Shown here piece after piece: positions 49,755 through 64,000 of a stretch of DNA of 64,000 nt (position 1 is the first letter of the stretch; the number at the start of each line of letters is the position of its first letter). A program made the position numbers and the translations under genes. A model generated the notes under the pieces. The model worked only from the letters and a program-made list of their open reading frames with translations. It had not been told where the DNA came from and searched no databases. The stretch lies in assembly GCF_003018255.1 (NCBI RefSeq), contig NZ_CP027440.1. One strand, 5' to 3'. Source of the DNA: Escherichia coli. GTDB lineage: Bacteria; Pseudomonadota; Gammaproteobacteria; Enterobacterales; Enterobacteriaceae.

Positions 49755-51506
<1,752 letters not shown>

Positions 51507-51521
51507 TAAGGAGTTTTGATT

Positions 51522-51827
51522 ATGACCGTACGTATTCTGGCTGTGTGTGGCAACGGACAAGGCAGTTCCATGATCATGAAAATGAAAGTGGACCAGTTTT
51601 TAACCCAGTCGAACATTGACCACACGGTAAACAGCTGCGCGGTTGGCGAATACAAAAGCGAGTTGAGCGGCGCGGATATCATCATCGCTTCTACCCATAT
51701 TGCGGGCGAAATCACTGTGACCGGCAACAAATATGTGGTTGGCGTGCGCAATATGCTCTCTCCTGCCGACTTTGGCCCGAAATTGCTGGAAGTGATCAAA
51801 GAGCATTTTCCGCAGGACGTGAAGTAA
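51522..51827 (+). CDS. ulaB: Ascorbate PTS EIIB
   Basis: ORF track frame; start at ATG 51522 ([16 protein letters not shown]), 101 aa. Confidence 0.95.
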
Positions 51828-51836
51828 GGACGCGCC

Positions 51837-52301
51837 ATGAAATTACGTGATTCGCTGGCGGAGAATAAATCCATCCGCCTGCAGGCTGAAGCTGAGACAT
51901 GGCAGGACGCAGTAAAAATCGGCGTTGACCTGCTGGTGGCGGCGGATGTTGTCGAGCCGCGTTACTACCAGGCGATTCTGGATGCGGTTGAACAGCACGG
52001 TCCGTACTTTGTGCTCGCACCCGGCCTGGCAATGCCGCACGGTCGCCCGGAAGAGGGCGTTAAGAAAACCGGTTTTGCGCTGGTGACGCTGAAAAAGCCG
52101 CTGGAGTTCAACCACGAAGATAACGATCCGGTGGATATCCTCATCACCATGGCGGCGGTCGATGCCAACACTCACCAGGAAGTGGGCATCATGCAGATCG
52201 TCAATCTGTTTGAAGATGAAGAGAATTTCGACCGTTTACGTGCCTGCCGTACCGAGCAGGAAGTACTGGATCTCATTGACCGCACCAACGCGGCAGCTTA
52301 A
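51837..52301 (+). CDS. ulaC: Ascorbate PTS EIIA
   Basis: ORF track 154 aa. Confidence 0.95.
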
Positions 52302-52314
52302 GAAGGAATTGAAA

Positions 52315-52965
52315 ATGTCATTACCGATGTTGCAGGTCGCGCTGGACAACCAGACTATGGATAGCGCCTATGAAACCACTCGCCTGATTGCCGAAGAAGT
52401 CGACATTATCGAAGTGGGTACCATTCTGTGCGTGGGCGAAGGCGTGCGTGCGGTTCGCGATCTGAAAGCGCTTTACCCGCACAAAATCGTACTGGCAGAC
52501 GCCAAAATTGCCGATGCGGGCAAAATCCTTTCTCGTATGTGCTTCGAAGCTAACGCTGACTGGGTGACCGTGATTTGCTGTGCGGATATCAACACAGCTA
52601 AAGGTGCGCTGGACGTGGCAAAAGAGTTTAACGGCGACGTGCAGATCGAACTGACCGGTTACTGGACCTGGGAACAGGCGCAACAGTGGCGCGACGCAGG
52701 CATTGGGCAGGTGGTTTATCACCGCAGCCGTGACGCACAGGCCGCAGGTGTGGCGTGGGGCGAAGCGGACATTACCGCGATCAAACGTCTTTCCGATATG
52801 GGCTTCAAAGTCACCGTCACCGGTGGTCTGGCGCTGGAAGATCTGCCGTTGTTTAAAGGCATTCCGATTCATGTGTTTATCGCTGGTCGCAGCATTCGTG
52901 ATGCCGCTTCTCCGGTGGAGGCCGCACGTCAGTTCAAACGTTCCATCGCTGAACTGTGGGGCTAA
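52315..52965 (+). CDS. ulaD: 3-keto-L-gulonate-6-phosphate decarboxylase UlaD
   Basis: ORF track frame; start at ATG 52315 ([19 protein letters not shown]), 216 aa. Confidence 0.95.
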
Positions 52966-52974
52966 GGAGCGGAT

Positions 52975-53829
52975 ATGTTGTCCAAACAAATCCCGCTTGG
53001 CATCTATGAAAAAGCGCTCCCCGCCGGGGAGTGCTGGCTGGAACGGCTGCAACTGGCAAAAACGTTAGGCTTCGATTTTGTCGAGATTTCGGTAGATGAA
53101 ACGGACGATCGCCTGTCGCGCCTCGACTGGAGCCGCGAGCAGCGTCTGGCGCTGGTGAACGCGATTGTTGAAACCGGCGTGCGCGTGCCGTCCATGTGCC
53201 TTTCTGCTCATCGTCGTTTCCCGCTGGGCAGCGAAGATGACGCAGTGCGGGCGCAGGGGCTGGAGATTATGCGCAAAGCTATCCAGTTCGCCCAGGATGT
53301 CGGTATTCGCGTGATCCAACTGGCGGGCTACGACGTTTACTATCAGGAAGCCAATAACGAAACGCGTCGTCGTTTCCGTGACGGCCTGAAAGAGAGCGTT
53401 GAGATGGCAAGCCGCGCGCAGGTGACGCTGGCGATGGAGATCATGGATTACCCGTTGATGAACTCCATCAGCAAGGCGCTGGGTTACGCGCACTATCTTA
53501 ACAACCCGTGGTTCCAGCTCTACCCGGATATCGGCAACTTGTCGGCGTGGGACAACGACGTGCAGATGGAGTTGCAGGCCGGGATCGGGCATATCGTCGC
53601 GGTGCATGTGAAAGACACCAAACCAGGCGTCTTCAAAAACGTCCCGTTTGGCGAAGGTGTAGTGGATTTCGAACGTTGCTTCGAAACGCTCAAACAGAGT
53701 GGTTATTGCGGGCCGTACCTGATTGAGATGTGGAGCGAAACGGCGGAAGACCCGGCGGCAGAAGTGGCGAAAGCGCGTGATTGGGTGAAAGCGCGCATGG
53801 CCAAAGCCGGCATGGTGGAGGCGGCATAA
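52975..53829 (+). CDS. ulaE: L-ribulose-5-phosphate 3-epimerase UlaE
   Basis: ORF track 284 aa. Confidence 0.95.
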
Positions 53830-54515
53830 TGCAAAAGCTAAAACAGCAGGTATTTGAAGCCAATATGGATCTGCCGCGCTACGGGCTGGTGACCTTTACC
53901 TGGGGCAACGTCAGCGCCATTGACCGCGAACGCGGGCTGGTGGTGATCAAGCCCAGCGGCGTTGCCTACGAAACCATGAAAGCAGACGATATGGTGGTGG
54001 TTGATATGAGCGGCAAGGTGGTGGAAGGGGAGTATCGTCCGTCTTCCGACACCGCGACGCATCTTGAACTCTACCGCCGTTATCCGTCGCTTGGCGGCAT
54101 TGTCCATACCCATTCCACGCATGCCACCGCATGGGCGCAGGCGGGGCTGGCTATCCCGGCATTAGGCACCACGCACGCTGACTACTTCTTTGGCGATATC
54201 CCCTGTACGCGCGGGTTAAGCGAAGAAGAAGTGCAGGGGGAATACGAGCTAAACACTGGCAAAGTGATTATCGAAACGCTGGGTGACGCCGAGCCGCTGC
54301 ATACGCCGGGAATTGTGGTGTATCAGCACGGGCCATTCGCCTGGGGGAAAGATGCTCACGATGCGGTGCATAACGCGGTGGTGATGGAAGAAGTGGCGAA
54401 AATGGCGTGGATTGCCCGCGGCATTAACCCGCAACTGAATCACATCGACAGCTATCTCATGAATAAACACTTCATGCGTAAGCACGGTCCCAACGCCTAT
54501 TACGGGCAGAAGTAA
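53829..54515 (+). CDS. ulaF: L-ribulose-5-phosphate 4-epimerase UlaF
   Basis: ORF track frame; start at ATG 53829 overlapping the ulaE stop (TAATG), 228 aa. Confidence 0.95.
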
Positions 54516-54572
54516 AACACGCGCTGCGGAGATTTCCTTCTTCGGGAGATAACTGGTCTAAGTCCGCAGCCG

Positions 54573-54603
54573 TTTTTCAAAAAAAGCCCCCTGAAAAGGG
54601 GGC
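54573..54603 (-). terminator. Rho-independent terminator of yjfY
   Basis: Hairpin gccccc-tgaaaa-gggggc (54586..54603) with T-tract on the minus strand. Confidence 0.75.
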
Positions 54604-54643
54604 AAAGCAAACTATGGCAATGTTTCGTTGGTTATACCTGGTG

Positions 54644-54919
54644 CTAGCGATAAATATCCGCGCTGGCGTGCATATTGCCGTTACTCCCCGGTTCCCGCAT
54701 CAGAATCACGTGGTAGTACGTTGCGCCCTGCGCATCTGTCTCTTCATTTAATGCCTGACGCGCTTCGCTTTCAGTGGCGAAATTATGATTGATATAAATC
54801 ACGCCTAAGCTTTGCACATCGTCCATATTTCTGGCCTGGTGGTTATTAATTTCAATGGCTGCCCATGTATTTGCACTTAGCAAAAGCACAGCCAGAAGGG
54901 CTAAAACACGGCTGAACAT
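54644..54919 (-). CDS. yjfY: DUF1471-family periplasmic protein YjfY
   Basis: ORF track 91 aa; signal peptide MFSRVLALLAVLLLSANTWA. Confidence 0.85.
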   Translation of the reverse strand: MFSRVLALLAVLLLSANTWAAIEINNHQARNMDDVQSLGVIYINHNFATESEARQALNEETDAQGATYYHVILMREPGSNGNMHASADIYR

Positions 54920-55228
54920 AGATACCTCCTCGACGGCTGACTTTGTGTGCTCTCCTCTTGTGGTGATCTTCTGATTTAATTTTAATCAATGATAAAGAAG
55001 TGGATGGTGACCATTTCTGATGCAGTTGTTCAAAAAAACACCATGATGAAGTGTGATGAACTTCAAATCAGCGTGTTAGTACGATTTGGTGAAGGATGAG
55101 ATTTATTTGTCGGCTGGCCTTGAGTTTAGCGGGGTATGTCAGTACTATAACGCGTCATTTTTCAGCCGACCTTTAACACGTTCCTTGCCTCCCCGGGATT
55201 CGGCTGACCCAGACAGGAGGCTGAATAA

Positions 55229-55642
<414 letters not shown>

Positions 55643-55648
55643 TTTCTG

Positions 55649-56195
<547 letters not shown>

Positions 56196-56224
56196 TCGGT
56201 CACGGTCCATTAATACGACTTTGA

Positions 56225-56686
<462 letters not shown>

Positions 56687-56707
56687 TTCGTTATTCAACG
56701 AGACGTA

Positions 56708-56740
56708 AAAACGCCGACCAGTGGTCGGCGTTTTGCTTTT
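56708..56740 (+). terminator. Rho-independent terminator of the rpsF-priB-rpsR-rplI operon
   Basis: Hairpin cgccgacca-gt-ggtcggcg (56712..56730) followed by ttttgctttt. Confidence 0.85.
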
Positions 56741-57048
56741 AAGTGATAAAAACCGCAGAAACAGACGTTCCCTCCATAAATCTCTTGCTATTCCTTTTAT
56801 AAAAAGTTCGCAGTACCCATACCTGGCCCCCAGCCTCGCCGCTGGTAGTTCGTGTCATGTTTTTTACGCGTAAAACACGACAAAAGCATCAATACAGCGA
56901 TCGTCTCACTTGTATGATAATAAAAACAATATGTTATATATGAATGTGCTGTTATTTTATTGTTTTTATATATAAAAAGATAAAATACCATCACTTTCGT
57001 AATCTTGAACGCTTTGCAGGTGCGTTCAATCCAATAAATGCTAATATT

Positions 57049-57065
57049 ATGGCTATCATAGCCAT
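57049..57065. promoter_or_regulatory. Candidate operator: 17-bp perfect palindrome upstream of the HTH gene
   Basis: atggctat-c-atagccat with 8-bp perfect arms, 23 bp before the HTH start codon; function inferred. Confidence 0.4.
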
Positions 57066-57087
57066 AAAAAGATAAAATATTATCACT

Positions 57088-57579
57088 ATGGGTAAAAAAA
57101 CAGCACCGTTACTCCCTTATACGAATCAGATGCTTAGTGAATTTGGTGAGCGGCTGAAACTTGCTCGTTTACGACGCAGGCTTACCGCAAAGCAAGTTGC
57201 TGAACGTGCTGGGATGTCGCCAATAACATTGCGCTCTCTGGAGTCAGGAAGTGCAGGGGTCACGATAGGGGCATATTTGTCTGTGATGCAGGTTTTGGGC
57301 CTGGAAACGGATTTAAATAAGCTTGCAGCTGAAGACGACTTAGGGCGTCAGCTCCAGGATTCCCGTTTGATTAAAAAAAGAGGGCTTTCTCGTGCATCAA
57401 GTAAGAATGAAGAAGGTTCTCAGACAGCCTCATTGCAGATGAGGCACGAGAAAGAAGGTCATCTCACCACGGATTTAACAGCACTGGCAGAAGGCTCGAC
57501 GCCATCTATTACAGGAGAAACATCAACCTCTCTTGCAGCACTATTAAAACCGATAAAAAAACCGTTAAAAGGAAATTAA
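57088..57579 (+). CDS. XRE-family helix-turn-helix protein with extended Ser/Thr-rich C-terminal tail; putative HipB-like antitoxin/repressor
   Basis: ORF track 163 aa; N-terminal region ([32 protein letters not shown]) has the XRE/Cro-type HTH pattern; stop lies 2 nt before the kinase start. Confidence 0.7.
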
Positions 57580-57581
57580 TT

Positions 57582-58850
57582 ATGGCATTAATCGGAGTGT
57601 ATGCGGATTGGGAAGGCCTGGATGGTCCGGAGCGGATTGGTTATTTACACAGTCGCCGCACTCGGACGCGTGAGATATTTGAGTTTGAGTACGATAAAAA
57701 GGCGCTTGCAGATCCTTCACTTAATTTCATTCAGTTAGATCCTGAAATAATGTTGTATGAGGGAGCACACTACCCAATTCCTCCAAAGGATAAATTTGGT
57801 GCATTTAGTGATTCCTGCCCGGATCGTTGGGGGCGTATGCTAATGAAGCGTCGTTTTGAGAGGGATATTCGAGACGGGTTATGTGATAAAGACTCCCACC
57901 TTTATGAGTCTGATTATCTACTAGGTGTTCATGATCTTTATCGGGTTGGGGCCCTTCGATACAAACGTGAAGACGCTGGAGAGTTTCTTGATAATCGCAT
58001 TGATGTTGCAGCCCCACCATTTACCGAAATAGCGAGTCTGGAAAGGGCTAGCCGGGCAATTGAAGAAGATCCTGATAATAAAGAGCTAATGGGGCAAAAA
58101 TGGTTAAGAATGCTAATCGCTCCGGGGGGATCATTAGGGGGGGCACGTCCGAAAGCCAGTGTTGTTGATGAAGCTGGGCATCTCTACATCGCTAAATTTC
58201 CCAGTGTAAAAGATGAGTATGATGTTGGTGGATGGGAAATGGCCGTTAATGCACTTGCTGTTGGCTGTGGACTGAATGTTGCACCTGCTCAGGCGCATAA
58301 ATTTGCCAGCAATTACCATTGTTTTATGGTTCGTCGTTTTGACCGCACTAATGCGGGAAGGCGTCTGCATTTTGCTTCGGCTATGACACTAACCAGGCAT
58401 CAGGATGGTGAAGATGCCTCTACAGGTGTGAGTTATCTGGAATTAGCAGATGTTCTTATCAGGCATGGCGCGCAGACTAATACTGATCTTAAGGAACTCT
58501 GGTCCAGGATTGTTTTTAATATTCTTGTTTCTAATACCGATGATCATTTACGCAATCATGGATTTATCTTGATACCAGGAAAAGGTTGGCGGCTTTCTGA
58601 GGCATATGATTTGAATCCTGTGGTCAGGTCTGATGGTTTAAAACTCAATATTACGGAAAATGACAATGCACTTGATTTGGAATTAGCTAGAGAAGTTGCA
58701 GAGTATTTTCGACTTAGTTTGACGGAAGCTGATGACATTATTGCTAATTTTAGAGGGATTGTCAGTCAGTGGCGAATCATTGCCGAGCGTCTGAGATTAC
58801 CTGGTCGTGAGCAAGAGTTAATGGCAGAGGCATTCAGAGCGTCAATTTAG
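57582..58850 (+). CDS. HipA-family serine/threonine kinase (putative toxin)
   Basis: ORF track 422 aa; HipA-like motifs GGARPK (res ~186-191), NTDDHLRNHG (res ~318-327), AYD (res ~341-343) and N-terminal SDSCPDRWGR resembling the HipA N-subdomain; RBS aaaagga. Confidence 0.75.
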   Translation: MALIGVYADWEGLDGPERIGYLHSRRTRTREIFEFEYDKKALADPSLNFIQLDPEIMLYEGAHYPIPPKDKFGAFSDSCPDRWGRMLMKRRFERDIRDGLCDKDSHLYESDYLLGVHDLYRVGALRYKREDAGEFLDNRIDVAAPPFTEIASLERASRAIEEDPDNKELMGQKWLRMLIAPGGSLGGARPKASVVDEAGHLYIAKFPSVKDEYDVGGWEMAVNALAVGCGLNVAPAQAHKFASNYHCFMVRRFDRTNAGRRLHFASAMTLTRHQDGEDASTGVSYLELADVLIRHGAQTNTDLKELWSRIVFNILVSNTDDHLRNHGFILIPGKGWRLSEAYDLNPVVRSDGLKLNITENDNALDLELAREVAEYFRLSLTEADDIIANFRGIVSQWRIIAERLRLPGREQELMAEAFRASI

Positions 58851-58948
58851 AATAGTTATTTCGATATATTCGCTAAATCATAAATTTGCGAAGCAATGCC
58901 AGTAGATACTGAACGTTTTGGAAGAGACGTTTAATTTATGAGAAAAAT

Positions 58949-58981
58949 AGAAACGCTACAAAGCTAAATTATAGCGTTTCT
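58949..58981. terminator. Perfect 10-bp stem hairpin between convergent kinase gene and MFS gene
   Basis: agaaacgcta / tagcgtttct with 13-nt loop; T-rich run follows on the minus strand, so probably the MFS operon terminator. Confidence 0.55.
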
Positions 58982-58992
58982 ATGTAAAATAA

Positions 58993-60270
58993 TTAGCTTG
59001 TCGCTAACTGTACTTGTGGTTCTTCGTCTTTAACTTTGATAAGCATCCACAGCGCAATGGCGCCAATAATGTCAAAGAAAGCCAGGGCAATAAAGAACGG
59101 CGCGAAGCCAATAATGTGAACGAATGCCCCGATAAACAGGTTGAAAATCAACTGACCGCTCCATGCACAGGCTCCTGCCATACCCACAGCGGTAGCTACT
59201 TCGTCTTTTTTGAATAGGTCACCGCCCAGAGTTGCTGCAACAGTAGAAAGACATTGATGCGAGAATGCGCCAATGCTAATCAGTAATACGGCGATGTAGG
59301 GATTTTCGACAATACTCACCAGACCAATCGTCATCATAATGACGGCTGCAATAGTGAAGGTAATTCTTCGTGAGTTAATTAAACTCACGCCGCGATCGTG
59401 GAAGAACTTCGCGACAAAACCACTGGCTAAACAGCCGAGATCGCCCAGCAGGAAAGGTAGCCAGACGAACATGGCAATTTCTTTCAGGCTAAAATGCAGC
59501 GTTTCGACGAAGAAAATCGGTACCCAGAAGTTAATGGTTCCCCATGCCGGGTCAGCGAGAAAACGCGCGATGCCAATCCCCCAGAAATTACGTTGGCTGA
59601 GGATATGCTTGATTGACGTTTTTTCTTTCTTATCTGTTTTAAGATGCTGTTCTTGCCCAGACTCAATATAGTGGCGCTCTTCATCAGAAAGGCGTTTAGC
59701 ATCTTTTGGATCTTTATAACAAAAGAACCAAAATAAAGCCGCGAGTAAAGCAAGGCTACCTGAGACAATAAACGCAAATTGCCAGCTATGAAACATAATG
59801 CACCAGGCAATCAACGGTGGAGCAAGCATCGCGCCGAGTGAGGTGCCCATATTGAAAACACCTGTCGCCACGCCACGCTCTTTTGCCGGGAACCATGTTG
59901 ATGCGGTTTTTACACCCGCAGGAATTGCCGATGCTTCGCTGAAACCCATCAGGGCGCGCATAAATGCCAGACCTGACCATGTTCCTGTCAAGGCATGCCC
60001 CATTGTCGCCAGGCCCCAGATTGCGGCACATATCGCAAAACTTAACTTCAGACCCACGGTATCAATAAAGAAGCCCATTATCGGTTGCCCCAATGTATAG
60101 GCCAACTGGAATGCACTGACAATCCATGAATATTGTTCTTTGGTTATTCCGGTTGTCTCCATAATCGTTGGAGCCGCAATACCTAACGCCGTTCTGTCCA
60201 GATAATTGATTACAGTGATAAAGCATACGAGGGCAATCATATGCCATCGATAATTCTTTATTTTATTCAT
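58993..60270 (-). CDS. MFS transporter, probably anion:cation symporter (ACS) type
   Basis: ORF track 425 aa; about 12 predicted hydrophobic helices; N-terminal NYLDRT motif resembling ExuT/DgoT-type carriers. Confidence 0.75.
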   Translation of the reverse strand: MNKIKNYRWHMIALVCFITVINYLDRTALGIAAPTIMETTGITKEQYSWIVSAFQLAYTLGQPIMGFFIDTVGLKLSFAICAAIWGLATMGHALTGTWSGLAFMRALMGFSEASAIPAGVKTASTWFPAKERGVATGVFNMGTSLGAMLAPPLIAWCIMFHSWQFAFIVSGSLALLAALFWFFCYKDPKDAKRLSDEERHYIESGQEQHLKTDKKEKTSIKHILSQRNFWGIGIARFLADPAWGTINFWVPIFFVETLHFSLKEIAMFVWLPFLLGDLGCLASGFVAKFFHDRGVSLINSRRITFTIAAVIMMTIGLVSIVENPYIAVLLISIGAFSHQCLSTVAATLGGDLFKKDEVATAVGMAGACAWSGQLIFNLFIGAFVHIIGFAPFFIALAFFDIIGAIALWMLIKVKDEEPQVQLATS

Positions 60271-60362
60271 TTTTAAACCTTTTAATTATATTAATAAACC
60301 CTGGTTGTTGGTATTTCCATGTAATAGGCAATAAAAATCAGGTACAGAGGAAATATTGAAAA

Positions 60363-62435
60363 TTATTGTGTGTAAATGTCTCCCTTTAAAAAATCTGGCC
60401 AGTTTTTTTCAAAGTAAATACCGTTAATACACGGTTGCATACGTAAAGACTTTACTTCGGTAATAAAAGAACCTTGCGAATATTGAATTGTTAATTTGTG
60501 ATTTTTGTCTTCAGCGAGTTCAGAGCGAAAACGCCATTCTTCTTTTGCGCCGCGACGAGTTTGTGGTAGGCATTTGCCTTGTGGATCAATAACCATACGC
60601 GCCCCACGGCTACCACCACCAGCATCAATATAATGCGTTAATTGTGTTAATACCGCGGCAGAAGTCAGCGCCATATGCCGCCACATAAACAGCTCGGCAA
60701 CTTCACCCACATGTTTGATTGCCAATCCATGCCGTTGGACAAATTCGTTCAATAGCAGGGCATCACGAGTGGCACGTCGGACTTTATCGGCATGGCAAAT
60801 AAATCCCGCATAGTCAGACATTCGTGCCTGAATTTTTTCTCTCACAACCGACAACGGCATCCCGGTCCCGTTATCGTGCGCCTGAGTAATGATCTCTCTT
60901 ATAGAAGCCAGTGCCGGAGCTACCAGCTGTGCTATATCTCCATCAATATTACGTTTTTGCGTGCAACCAATAAAACGTGCCAGACGAACAGCAAAAACCT
61001 GCCCGGCATTCAATGCCGCACCACCAGGGCGAGTGACGCCGTGTGTGCCAGCAACTTCCCCCACGGCGAAACAGCCGGGCAGGGAGGTTTGTCCCCAGAT
61101 ATCCACTTCAATGCCGCCATTCATATGCTGATTATTCATGGCAAACTGCAAAGGCTGTGTGGTGAGATCGTAACCGTGCATCTTATACAGCGAGATAGAC
61201 AGCGGATTCATTCGTTGCAGCCGTTCGATGGGCGATGGTGCCAGAGCGTCGTTATTTTCCAGATACGCGCGAACGTCGTCGTCCAGTCGATCTAATGAGA
61301 AGGGCAGGTCACCCGGCACCGCTTCAGGATTGCGATTGAAATCCATAAATACCTGACGCCCTGATTGCTGCTCTTGCGCTACAGCCATATCTAACAAGCT
61401 GGAGCCAAACTCCATTACCCGAGTGGCGTGGAACGGCCACTGATAGCCTTTACGAAAAATGTTTGAAGCCAGCTCCTGGGTGGTGCGATAGTAATCCGCG
61501 AGGAAGTTATACTCGTTGCCCCCGGCATCCACGGAATAGATATGTGGGATCACCTGCACATAGGTGCCGGACAAATTCCACGGAAACGTGCTGCGCGGTG
61601 TGCCTATACCAAACTGGCTTTCAGTCAAATTGGTTAGCGTCAGACCTTCTTCCAGCGCCAGCCCCAGCGAGCCGAAACATTTGTGTGGGTACACACTGTC
61701 GCGATAAAGCTCGCCAGGCCCTCCTGTTGCCAGTACCACATTGGGCGCAATCACAATTGCCAGCCCCCATGGGTTATGGACGCGATGACCGGTCGCGAGG
61801 ATAGCCCCCGCCACGCGGTCTTCGCCGTTTTCGTCACGCTGATGCAGCAGTTTAATCACTGTTGCACTGGTCAACATTGGGATAGCAAGACGCTGTACTT
61901 CTTCCAGCAGCACTTTCACCATTAACCTTGAGGTACGTGGCCCACACGAGGTTGCACGCCCGGCTTCGTCATGGTCGGTTTGATAACGAAGAATCGCACC
62001 ATAGCGATCTTCCGGTAATTCCAGACCAAGATATTGCAACCCGCCAAGAGTGTGCAGAGAACCTACCGCTTCGACATAAGCAGTGTCGTGATCCATCGCC
62101 CCACCACTCGCCAGTGCCTCTGCCAGTTTGGTGAAGTTGTCGCCGTTGCCCGCGGTAGCGGCGGTAAACAGCGTCTGTTTATCGGAACCGGAGCAGGCCG
62201 ATGTTCCCATGTATAACCCGGCGGTGGCGATTAACACATTTTGCTGGCGGCGTTTAAGTTCCACAGCTGCACGCAGCCCGGCTGCACCACTGCCGACTAC
62301 CAGGGCATCTGTTTGCCAAAGTGGGTAATCAACACCGTCTACCGTGACAACCCATGCGGGTTCTGCCTGTGCAAAACCCTTTGGGAAAGTAACGTGCGTC
62401 AGCGCATCAAGGATGGTGTCATCAAGCTGACTCAT
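60363..62435 (-). CDS. FAD-dependent oxidoreductase, fumarate reductase/succinate dehydrogenase flavoprotein-like
   Basis: ORF track 690 aa; dinucleotide-binding VVGSGAAGLRAA and FrdA-like segment CFAVGEVAGTHGVTRPGGAALNAGQVF; ATG overlaps the upstream stop (ATGA). Confidence 0.7.
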   Translation of the reverse strand: MSQLDDTILDALTHVTFPKGFAQAEPAWVVTVDGVDYPLWQTDALVVGSGAAGLRAAVELKRRQQNVLIATAGLYMGTSACSGSDKQTLFTAATAGNGDNFTKLAEALASGGAMDHDTAYVEAVGSLHTLGGLQYLGLELPEDRYGAILRYQTDHDEAGRATSCGPRTSRLMVKVLLEEVQRLAIPMLTSATVIKLLHQRDENGEDRVAGAILATGHRVHNPWGLAIVIAPNVVLATGGPGELYRDSVYPHKCFGSLGLALEEGLTLTNLTESQFGIGTPRSTFPWNLSGTYVQVIPHIYSVDAGGNEYNFLADYYRTTQELASNIFRKGYQWPFHATRVMEFGSSLLDMAVAQEQQSGRQVFMDFNRNPEAVPGDLPFSLDRLDDDVRAYLENNDALAPSPIERLQRMNPLSISLYKMHGYDLTTQPLQFAMNNQHMNGGIEVDIWGQTSLPGCFAVGEVAGTHGVTRPGGAALNAGQVFAVRLARFIGCTQKRNIDGDIAQLVAPALASIREIITQAHDNGTGMPLSVVREKIQARMSDYAGFICHADKVRRATRDALLLNEFVQRHGLAIKHVGEVAELFMWRHMALTSAAVLTQLTHYIDAGGGSRGARMVIDPQGKCLPQTRRGAKEEWRFRSELAEDKNHKLTIQYSQGSFITEVKSLRMQPCINGIYFEKNWPDFLKGDIYTQ

Positions 62436-63973
62436 GCATCCTCCATCGGCGTAAACAGGCTACTTTCCATCAGGCGTGGGTGCTTGATAATTGGACGGAA
62501 AGCCATATACGGCAGAATGTCGCGCTCAATCTCCACACCCGGCGCGATTTCAATTAATTCAACGCCTTCTGCCGTTAACTGGAATACTGCGCGTTCAGTG
62601 ATATACAGCACTTCCTGACCACTTTGCTGTGCGTAGGCGGCGCTAAAAGTGATTTTTTCCACTTGGGTAACCAGTTTAGGGATTTGACCTGACTGGGCGA
62701 TATGCAGGCCATCAGGCGTTACATCAATCTTGCTGCCTTTGGCGTCAAACGTACCGCAGAACACCACTTTACGGGCGTTTTGCGCAATTTCGAGGAAGCC
62801 GCCGGGGCCAATGAGATTGCCATTGAGATGGGATACGTTGACGTTACCGTACCGATCCATCTCTCCCATGCCGAGGAAGGTGATATCGATACCGCCGCCA
62901 CTGTAGAATTCGAATTGATCGAGTGATGGAATAATGGCGTCGGCGTTACGGGCGCAGCCGAACAGAGCATCATCCAGCATCATGCCGTTATGTACGCCTT
63001 GCTCGACGCTCATCCATAAACTTTGATAAGGCACGCCTTCGCGCAGCGCAACCCCAGGAATACCGCCCGGAATACCAAAGCCAAAGTTGGTTGAAGCGCC
63101 TGCCACCAGTTCCCGTGCTGCCCGACGGGCAATCAGGCGACGCACCGGATGACTAACCAGTTCAATAGCGTCGTTAGAACTTAGACGGCGATGTTGACCG
63201 CTGATCGTCAGGTCGTAACCGCCAAGATAGGTTTGCGGTTGTTCGCGGTGTTCAACGATACCATCGACCAGAATCCCCGGTAGCTTGACCTTGCGAGGTT
63301 CAATGGCGCCAGCTTCCAGTACATCGCGCACCTGTACAAACACTTTGCCGCCACTGTTGTGTGCTGCCAGCGCCATCGAATAGCTATCCATATCAATCGC
63401 TTCTTCTTCGAGGCTAACGTTGCCACGCGGATCGGCATAGGTGCCGCGCAAAATCGCGTAGTCCACTTTGAAAGGGCGATAGCGGAGTTTGGTTTCACCG
63501 TCGATTTCAATCAGTTCTACCAGGTCGTCGGTCGTGCATTCATTCGACTTACCGCCACCATTGCGTGGATCAACAAACGATCCCAGCCCAACGTGGGTAA
63601 AAAGCCCCGGACGTCCGGCACCGATCTCCCGCAGCAGTGCCTGAATTACGCCACCAGGGAAACAGTAGGCTTCAATAGCATTGCTTTTCACCAGTTCCTG
63701 CATCTTGGGCGACCAGGTAAAATGTCCGGCAATAATGCGTTTGAGCATTTCGGCGTGAGCAAAACGGTTAGTGCCTTTGCTGTCGCGATCGCCAATACCC
63801 AGCGAGTGGATTAATGTCAGATCGCGCGGGTGTCCGGTTTGCAGGAAACGCGCTTCAATGGCGGCCATAATATGGTCAGCTTCCACCATACCGCCGCCGT
63901 TACCGCTAATGGCAATGGTTGCGCCGTCCTGAATTTGCGCCGCCAGTGTCTCGGCGGTTGATAACTTACGCAT
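62432..63973 (-). CDS. Fused two-domain acyl-CoA:acetate/3-ketoacid CoA-transferase (YdiF-like)
   Basis: ORF track 513 aa; strong resemblance to E. coli YdiF along its whole length by recall; RBS aggaaa; promoter lies beyond the window end. Confidence 0.75.
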   Translation of the reverse strand: MRKLSTAETLAAQIQDGATIAISGNGGGMVEADHIMAAIEARFLQTGHPRDLTLIHSLGIGDRDSKGTNRFAHAEMLKRIIAGHFTWSPKMQELVKSNAIEAYCFPGGVIQALLREIGAGRPGLFTHVGLGSFVDPRNGGGKSNECTTDDLVELIEIDGETKLRYRPFKVDYAILRGTYADPRGNVSLEEEAIDMDSYSMALAAHNSGGKVFVQVRDVLEAGAIEPRKVKLPGILVDGIVEHREQPQTYLGGYDLTISGQHRRLSSNDAIELVSHPVRRLIARRAARELVAGASTNFGFGIPGGIPGVALREGVPYQSLWMSVEQGVHNGMMLDDALFGCARNADAIIPSLDQFEFYSGGGIDITFLGMGEMDRYGNVNVSHLNGNLIGPGGFLEIAQNARKVVFCGTFDAKGSKIDVTPDGLHIAQSGQIPKLVTQVEKITFSAAYAQQSGQEVLYITERAVFQLTAEGVELIEIAPGVEIERDILPYMAFRPIIKHPRLMESSLFTPMEDA

Positions 63974-64000
63974 ACAATTTCCTTATTGATTGTGGAAGCT

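Follow-up and report, generated by a model that had tools for sequence, protein, structure and literature searches.

A non-coding junction downstream of rplI

What lies between the end of rplI and the next gene in this Escherichia coli genome, at the point where its gene order ceases to follow that of K-12? We examined positions 56741-57087 of a 64,000-nucleotide stretch of contig NZ_CP027440.1 (hereafter the window), in which rpsF-priB-rpsR-rplI run on the plus strand and the rplI stop codon falls at 56686. A terminator scan placed a strong intrinsic terminator after rplI on the same strand (hairpin 56708-56734, T-run to 56739). The next credible gene 3' of rplI encodes a helix-turn-helix (HTH) protein and starts at 57088. 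We consider it likely that the interval between them is the left edge, together with the promoter/operator-like region, of a ~2.2-kb hipBA-type toxin-antitoxin cassette (56740 to about 58966).

No credible gene was found in 56741-57087, which contains ORFs of 31-65 amino acids only. A second natural allele of the junction, from EC23HZZ201, differs from the window by indels of 1, 2, 1, and 4 bp. Because these indels shift the reading frame, the small ORFs were ruled out and the junction was taken as non-coding, in agreement with the first-pass annotation of this sequence. A small RNA or riboswitch was likewise rejected, as an Rfam search of 56500-57300 at a permissive threshold returned no family above threshold. 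The sub-threshold matches were driven by the rplI terminator.

That annotation had also described the whole interval as very AT-rich. This is accurate for 56901-57087 (26% GC), but not for 56741-56900 (44% GC). Overall GC content of the junction is 34.6%, against 51.6% for the whole window. In 200-bp windows, the cassette genes mostly fall at ~37-50% (junction, 35%).

The same annotation singled out a 14-bp perfect palindrome, ttttacgcgtaaaa (equivalent to TTTTACGCGTAAAA). Its sequence and position (56862-56875) are exact, and it sits within a longer imperfect inverted repeat (~56852-56885). However, it is neither conserved nor beyond chance. Five perfect 14-bp palindromes were observed in the window against 3.9 expected, and the hairpin around this one is not notably more stable than those of shuffled sequence (z = -1.45 and -0.42). 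In the EC23HZZ201 allele, the palindrome is broken, yet a better 13-bp stem is present (z = -4.05). With its count within expectation and its folding scores unremarkable, the palindrome was rejected as a special site. It also lacks a match to what we take to be the PurR, TyrR, and CRP consensus sequences. A second palindrome, TTTTATATATAAAA at 56964, is likewise within chance expectation.

Identity of the HTH/HipA gene pair

Two co-oriented genes follow the junction on the plus strand. The first (57088-57579) encodes a 163-aa HipB-like XRE-family HTH antitoxin/repressor (Pfam HTH_31, E = 6.6e-11). Directly downstream, the second (57582-58850) is intact and encodes a 422-aa HipA-family Ser/Thr kinase toxin (Pfam HipA_C, E = 2e-47). 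The gene order is that of a hipBA module, and the HipA_C match covers profile positions 2-213 of 213. The kinase translation contains GGSLGGARPK, which we take to be the Gly-rich loop, and NTDDHLRNHG, presumably the catalytic motif.

Part of this identification was already known. RefSeq annotates the two genes as an HTH protein and a 'type II toxin-antitoxin system HipA family toxin', and the structure of a close HipB homologue has been solved (PDB 9u9g, 'XRE family transcriptional regulator, HipB', 153 aa). Residues 1-99 of the HTH protein align end to end with this homologue (E = 1e-30), and an N-terminal MxKKTAPL motif is common to both. In contrast, the C-terminal ~60 residues could not be aligned. 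A literature search on 9U9G or leaderless hipB transcripts returned nothing relevant.

By its profile scores, the pair is a distinct subfamily within the Hip kinases. The best NCBIfam match of the kinase, YjjJ/HipH, reached 44.5 bits against a cutoff of 401, far from an equivalog assignment, and its best PDB match was HipT (E = 2e-8). The HTH protein scored 17.1 bits against the NCBIfam HipB model, whose cutoff is 79. For the kinase clades of Gerdes et al. 2021, the tables in the supplement yielded no searchable E. coli entry, and PADLOC contained no defence-system family matching the kinase.

We scanned one genome per species and obtained 181 loci encoding kinase relatives, the best 80 of which were kept. 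The closest relatives in other species, at 77-81% protein identity, were from Atlantibacter, Serratia, Pluralibacter, and Erwinia. Further relatives among the 80 came from Azotobacter, Burkholderia, and Pseudomonas, and from Bacteroidota at ~50% identity. An HTH homologue was present directly upstream of the kinase in 79 of these 80 loci. As the homologues align from residue 1 in 65 of the 80, the ATG at 57088 was confirmed as the start codon.

Boundaries and distribution of the cassette

The first-pass annotation had the gene order departing from K-12 directly after the rplI terminator, and alignment bears this out to the nucleotide. Identity to K-12 ends at 56739. The break, at 56739/56740, comes one base after the terminator T-run and is found in the same place when the window is compared with strain B, CE10, and AR#0349. 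On the right, homology resumes at 58967 relative to CE10, which has a yjfZ-type locus, and at 58990 relative to strain B. The cassette thus spans 56740-58966 or 56740-58989, depending on the strain compared.

Both ends of the cassette have flanks outside the gene pair. On the left, 56740-56945 forms a 206-bp spacer of 43-44% GC that was found only in cassette-carrying E. coli. It was present in 1046 E. coli genomes, every time at the rplI locus, and matched none of the 80 related loci from other species. Indeed, neither blastn against these related loci nor a 'distant' search of E. coli genomes detected any homologue of 56740-57037 outside cassette carriers. The spacer is presumably donor-derived or lineage-specific sequence with no assignable function. 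On the right, a flank of 58851-58966 was defined by comparison with CE10 and strain B. A terminator-like hairpin of a convergent MFS transporter gene (58947-58983, minus strand) straddles the right boundary. The cassette sits in the narrow space separating two convergent terminators, that of rplI and that of the MFS transporter gene.

We surveyed 5426 complete E. coli genomes for this segment. The first ~50 bases of the query, comprising the terminator, matched 5285 of them, and the whole junction matched 1043. Altogether, the cassette was found in 1043-1046 genomes (19%), always at this locus. Its absence from K-12 and from ~81% of complete genomes agrees with the earlier proposal that the segment departs from the K-12 order. 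In other strains, the slot that the cassette occupies holds yjfZ, or no more than 45 bp.

A search of plasmid sequences revealed no donor. Apart from one E. coli record, it returned only distant homologues on Pantoea and Azotobacter megaplasmids (about 68-69% DNA identity). That record, CP054241.1 (PLSDB, 834 kb; match at 606447-608690), is the sole near-identical 'plasmid' match and is more likely a misassigned chromosome fragment.

The earlier annotation had seen no integrase, transposase, tRNA, or flanking direct repeats, and none emerged here. The ORF list of the window contains no integrase or transposase, no tRNA was detected in 50000-64000, and neither target-site duplications, terminal inverted repeats, nor flanking direct repeats were seen at the cassette ends. 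Of the marks of a genomic island, the cassette displays patchy distribution and atypical composition, and has no integrase, tRNA/att site, or direct repeats. It amounts to ordinary strain-to-strain (pan-genome) variation and does not constitute a classical genomic island.

Immediately past GCGTTTTGCTTT, where the rplI terminator ends, the structural forms of the locus part ways, all of them within 1 nt. This terminator is the last sequence that they have in common. Such precision could reflect an active sequence- or structure-specific insertion hotspot, used for example by a trans-acting element recognising the hairpin. This would account for why four or more unlike sequences (those of the hipBA and yjfZ cassettes, the spacer of strain B, and the TRAP-transporter form) start within 1 nt of one base, and IS1 and IS200/IS605-family elements do occur in variants of the locus. 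However, these IS elements sit at other positions, and no transposase or recombinase lies in or beside the cassette, which also shows no terminal inverted repeats or target-site duplication. Furthermore, the convergent terminators of strain B are only 45 bp apart, such that selection keeping both would confine the insertions that survive. The simplest account is that breakpoints are restricted to a few nucleotides because only insertions between the terminators leave both intact. We consider an active hotspot improbable.

The preferred reading, a cassette seated between two terminators, is in line with the 'regions of genome plasticity' described between convergent core genes of E. coli. At one position, genomes carry hipBA, yjfZ, or nothing; MFS and TRAP transporters alternate, with deletions and IS insertions superimposed. 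The slot differs in that it is associated with neither a tRNA nor an integrase, everything in it is shorter than 3 kb, and the left breakpoint is common to all forms to the nucleotide. The cassette was presumably acquired horizontally. As it carries no recombinase of its own, homologous recombination through the conserved flanking sequences is its most likely route of spread within E. coli. The 45-bp spacer of strain B only weakly resembles 23 bp common to the window and CE10, and strain B may represent either a true empty site or a diverged alternative.

Operator-like sites upstream of the HTH gene

The right 142 bp of the junction (56946-57087) contain four operator-like sites, arranged as two inverted pairs. 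The distal pair consists of O1 (GTGCTGTTATTTTATT, 56946-56961, plus strand) and O2 (GTGATGGTATTTTATC as read on the minus strand, 56979-56994), with position weight matrix (PWM) scores of 15.3 and 13.3. The proximal pair consists of O3 (ATGCTAATATTATGGC, 57038-57053, plus strand; 20.9) and O4 (GTGATAATATTTTATC as read on the minus strand, 57071-57086; 19.5). Each site is a 16-nt GC-n-A-nn-A|T-nn-T-n-GC pseudo-dyad with the consensus GTGCTAATATTCTGGC. The most informative positions (3, 6, 9, 10, 13, and 16) are symmetric about the central A|T, and pseudo-dyad symmetry of this kind would suit an HTH dimer. O1 and O2 are separated by 33 nt start-to-start, and the dyad centres within a pair lie ~31 bp apart, roughly three helical turns.

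A repeat search detected a 24-nt direct repeat on the plus strand, with copies spaced 92 bp apart. The first, ATAAAAAGATAAAATACCATCACT (56972-56995), contains O2, while the second (57064-57087; 92% identical) contains O4. These repeats are O2 and O4 plus the flanks they share. We also noted a 10+10-bp perfect inverted repeat, TTATGGCTAT-c-ATAGCCATAA (57047-57067), which overlaps O3 and fills the O3-O4 spacer. It is specific to E. coli, as relatives have unrelated sequence at this place in the alignment.

The layout recurs among relatives. Within the 100 nt 5' of their start codons, a 16-mer near GTGCTAATATTCTGGC lies at about -50, and in most loci an inverted copy ends 1-2 nt before the ATG. 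A PWM trained on proximal sites only (last 70 nt) was used to scan 300 nt upstream of the start codon in 46 proteobacterial loci. This revealed 168 sites, compared with 4.1 +/- 2.1 in shuffled sequence. The proximal pair was found in 39 of the 46 loci, with the nearest site abutting the start codon, and an independent distal pair in 36. Start-to-start spacing within the distal pair was exactly 33 nt in 35 of these 36, while the gap between the proximal and distal pairs varied from about 85 to 205 nt. The four-site layout persists despite very different base composition, including in GC-rich Burkholderia and Pseudomonas.

Conservation within Enterobacterales is confined to the sites themselves. 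When six relatives were aligned, only the four sites (O2 among them) were conserved, and not the spacers or the sequence 5' of O1. By blastn, homology to the Atlantibacter, Serratia, and Erwinia cassettes starts at 57033-57039, at O3, and extends as far as the stop codon of the kinase gene. EC23HZZ201 has lost the 92 bp that separate the 24-nt repeats, a deletion that fuses O1 to O4. As the relatives have four sites, the four-site layout is ancestral and the single-pair layout a deletion product.

O4 ends one base 5' of the ATG (57088), and TAAAAT (57073-57078), the sole plausible -10 element, lies under its centre. A -10-like element at a fixed position relative to the ATG was found across related loci. 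Since a simple sigma-70 scan identified no strong plus-strand promoter in the junction, the promoter was placed by comparative geometry alone. A Shine-Dalgarno sequence (GGAG, GAGG, or AGGA at -18 to -4) was absent in 30 of the 46 loci, including the window. In the other 16, AGGA occurs within the last site, 10-11 nt from the ATG, where it could serve as a weak Shine-Dalgarno if the transcript starts further upstream. The distance between O4 and the ATG is fixed across taxa of differing composition, which suggests a leaderless or nearly leaderless mRNA. We judge the chances of leaderless expression of the HTH gene to be about even; the negative sigma-70 scan and the AGGA motifs of the 16 loci count against it.

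From these sequence comparisons, 56946-57087 is probably the control region of the cassette itself, with O1-O4 as its putative operators. The HipB-like repressor, alone or together with the HipA-like kinase, would occupy O1-O4 and thereby silence the operon that encodes it. When bound at O4, it would cover the -10 element and end at -2 from the ATG, which would shut off transcription. With no Shine-Dalgarno, the mRNA would be leaderless or carry a leader of a few nucleotides.

An alternative is that the AT-rich junction is non-functional foreign spacer, perhaps an H-NS-bound tract, whose repeats and palindromes are chance features. Its appeal lies in the 26% GC of 56901-57087, the chance-level palindromes at 56862 and 56964, and the absence of a consensus promoter from the scan. 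Against this, four sites with 33-nt pairing and a fixed distance to the ATG were found in dozens of loci, GC-rich ones included, in which the sequence between the sites is not conserved. We consider this explanation very improbable for the junction as a whole. It is contradicted for 56946-57087 and possible for 56740-56945. The junction is not featureless spacer, with a conserved promoter/operator-like region at its right end.

The predicted control region resembles and departs from that of K-12 hipBA, which reportedly has a four-operator promoter with the operator sequence TATCC-N8-GGATA. That promoter is repressed by its own HipB product. In both systems, an XRE-type HTH antitoxin gene lies upstream, followed directly by a HipA-family kinase gene. 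Four dyad-like sites overlap the core promoter, as putative operators in the case of the cassette, for which autorepression by HipB or a HipB-HipA complex would be expected by analogy. Unlike in K-12 hipBA, the sites here have the unrelated sequence GTGCTAATATTCTGGC and are arranged as two inverted pairs whose spacing is fixed at 33 nt; the final site abuts the ATG without a Shine-Dalgarno. The proteins differ as well: the antitoxin has 163 aa compared with 88 aa in K-12, and the kinases are only distantly related. The resulting map offers testable candidate operators for a widespread, uncharacterised HipBA subfamily.

Structural forms of the rplI-ytfB locus and the K-12 state

The window continues beyond the cassette into a TetR-regulated catabolic operon, the first genes of which (58993-63973, minus strand) encode an MFS transporter, an FAD-dependent oxidoreductase, and a CoA-transferase, according to the ORFs and the annotation of strain 104. 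This strain is 98.8% identical to the window over 27 kb. Past the end of the window, the operon leads to an intact TetR gene, of which K-12 ytfA is a shortened version, with ytfB after it. In strain 104, the operon comprises genes for a 3-ketoacyl-ACP reductase, a sugar-phosphate isomerase/epimerase, an enoyl-CoA hydratase, the CoA-transferase, the oxidoreductase, and the transporter. The TetR gene (648 bp, intact) is divergent from the adjoining operon. The reductase is an SDR protein and the isomerase/epimerase a TIM-barrel protein. EC23HZZ201 has an additional MaoC-dehydratase gene in its operon.

Inspection of examples from the 5426 genomes distinguished five main forms of the locus. Counts for form A and for yjfZ overall are exact; all remaining frequencies were estimated by sampling the match tables at evenly spaced rows. 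Form A, that of the window, combines the HTH/HipA cassette with the MFS gene, operon, and TetR gene (1043-1046 genomes, 19%; ST131, Nissle, ATCC 25922, 536, and APEC O2:K1). In form B (strain B, BL21), the rplI terminator is followed by 45 bp and then the MFS gene and operon, and in form E (CE10) by yjfZ and then the MFS gene and operon. Together, forms B and E make up about 11%. Form C (AR#0349; roughly 27-29%) has three TRAP-transporter genes in place of the MFS gene, followed by the operon. Form D, found in K-12 and O157:H7 (roughly 40%), has yjfZ and a truncated TetR gene only. A majority of E. coli possess the ~8-kb operon, together with either the MFS or the three-gene TRAP transporter.

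Several rare variants were also observed. EC23HZZ201 (L086 5995-7232) carries a diverged, decayed cassette with the 92-bp promoter deletion and a gutted kinase gene. In KE51 (L094 1501-2702), IS1 sits just after the HTH start, with an IS1-mediated deletion through the TetR N-terminus. Rare yjfZ forms (L096, L097, and L101 5755-7585) contain IS200/IS605-family elements (Y1 transposase + TnpB) between yjfZ and ytfB.

These comparisons bear on which state of the locus is original. When K-12 is aligned to strain 104, the match extends to the base equivalent to window position 56739 and then resumes only in the TetR-family gene, 10.1 kb further on. K-12 ytfA corresponds to the C-terminal 402 bp of the 648-bp TetR/AcrR gene, with the N-terminus gone (K-12 L002 9027-9535 versus L001 29527-30577). 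Beside it, K-12 retains a 102-bp, 81%-identical relic of the 3-ketoacyl-ACP reductase gene. Because the truncated TetR gene and the reductase relic survive, K-12 represents a deleted state, and its yjfZ-ytfA arrangement arose by deletion of the ~8-kb operon. According to PMC6790063, every E. fergusonii and E. albertii strain examined has ytfA, in keeping with an old operon.

It is hence barely credible that the junction is the att end of a single ~10-kb island (HTH/HipA plus operon) inserted site-specifically by rplI in a K-12-like ancestor: the absence of the segment from K-12, the sharp break at 56739/56740, and the GC dip at the junction would fit, but K-12 retains operon remnants, the operon exists without the cassette in strain B, CE10, and TRAP-transporter strains, ytfA occurs throughout the E. 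fergusonii and E. albertii strains examined (PMC6790063), and neither integrase, tRNA, nor flanking direct repeats were found. A reading as a single '10-kb island' inserted relative to K-12 did not stand, as K-12 is itself rearranged and only the ~2.2-kb cassette is specific to 19% of genomes. K-12 is thus not the reference state at the rplI-ytfB locus, where most E. coli keep the TetR-controlled operon.

The distribution of yjfZ has a practical consequence. PMC11057252 puts this gene forward as a 'conserved signature' qPCR marker that is confined to E. coli/Shigella and conserved among them. The K-12 yjfZ segment (L002 8068-8862) was covered by at least 80% in 2513 of the 5426 complete genomes, and no class of matches pointed to a copy elsewhere in these genomes. 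It was absent from cassette-carrying ExPEC lineages, strain B/BL21, and the TRAP-transporter form. As a universal marker, yjfZ would therefore miss about half of complete genomes, including major extraintestinal pathogenic lineages.

Loss of the kinase in carrier strains

The kinase gene is intact in the window, JNE23-011, and APEC E12053, while most sampled carrier strains have a frameshift or stop in it. Among these other carriers, at least four independent lesions inactivate the kinase gene. Single base pairs are deleted at nt 505 in ST131 strain 4433 and at nt 1076 in strain 104 and STLEFF_47, one base pair is inserted after nt 555 in 536 and EcN/Nissle, and N17 has a stop at codon 127. 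In every one of these strains, the annotation gives the 163-aa HTH gene as intact. Judged by match lengths, the frameshifted ST131-type allele accounts for approximately half of carriers. In EC23HZZ201, kinase codons 80-348 have been lost, and the spacer is about 88% identical to that of the window.

Repeated loss of the kinase with retention of the HTH gene is as would be expected for a toxic gene, judging from these alleles. We tentatively raise a broader possibility, which we think unlikely: the HTH/HipA pair may represent an undescribed leaderless, four-operator, autoregulated Hip module ranging from Proteobacteria to Bacteroidota, with the orphan repressor kept for another role (anti-addiction or local regulation) and the rplI terminator end maybe a targeted hotspot. 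What the operator map and the repeated decay of the toxin add is modest new detail, not a new kind of biological system. Toxin loss with the antitoxin kept has recurred in clinically dominant lineages. Indeed, the kinase has been knocked out repeatedly in pandemic ExPEC (ST131, Nissle/ST73-type, and 536), with the repressor and the operator-like sites retained.
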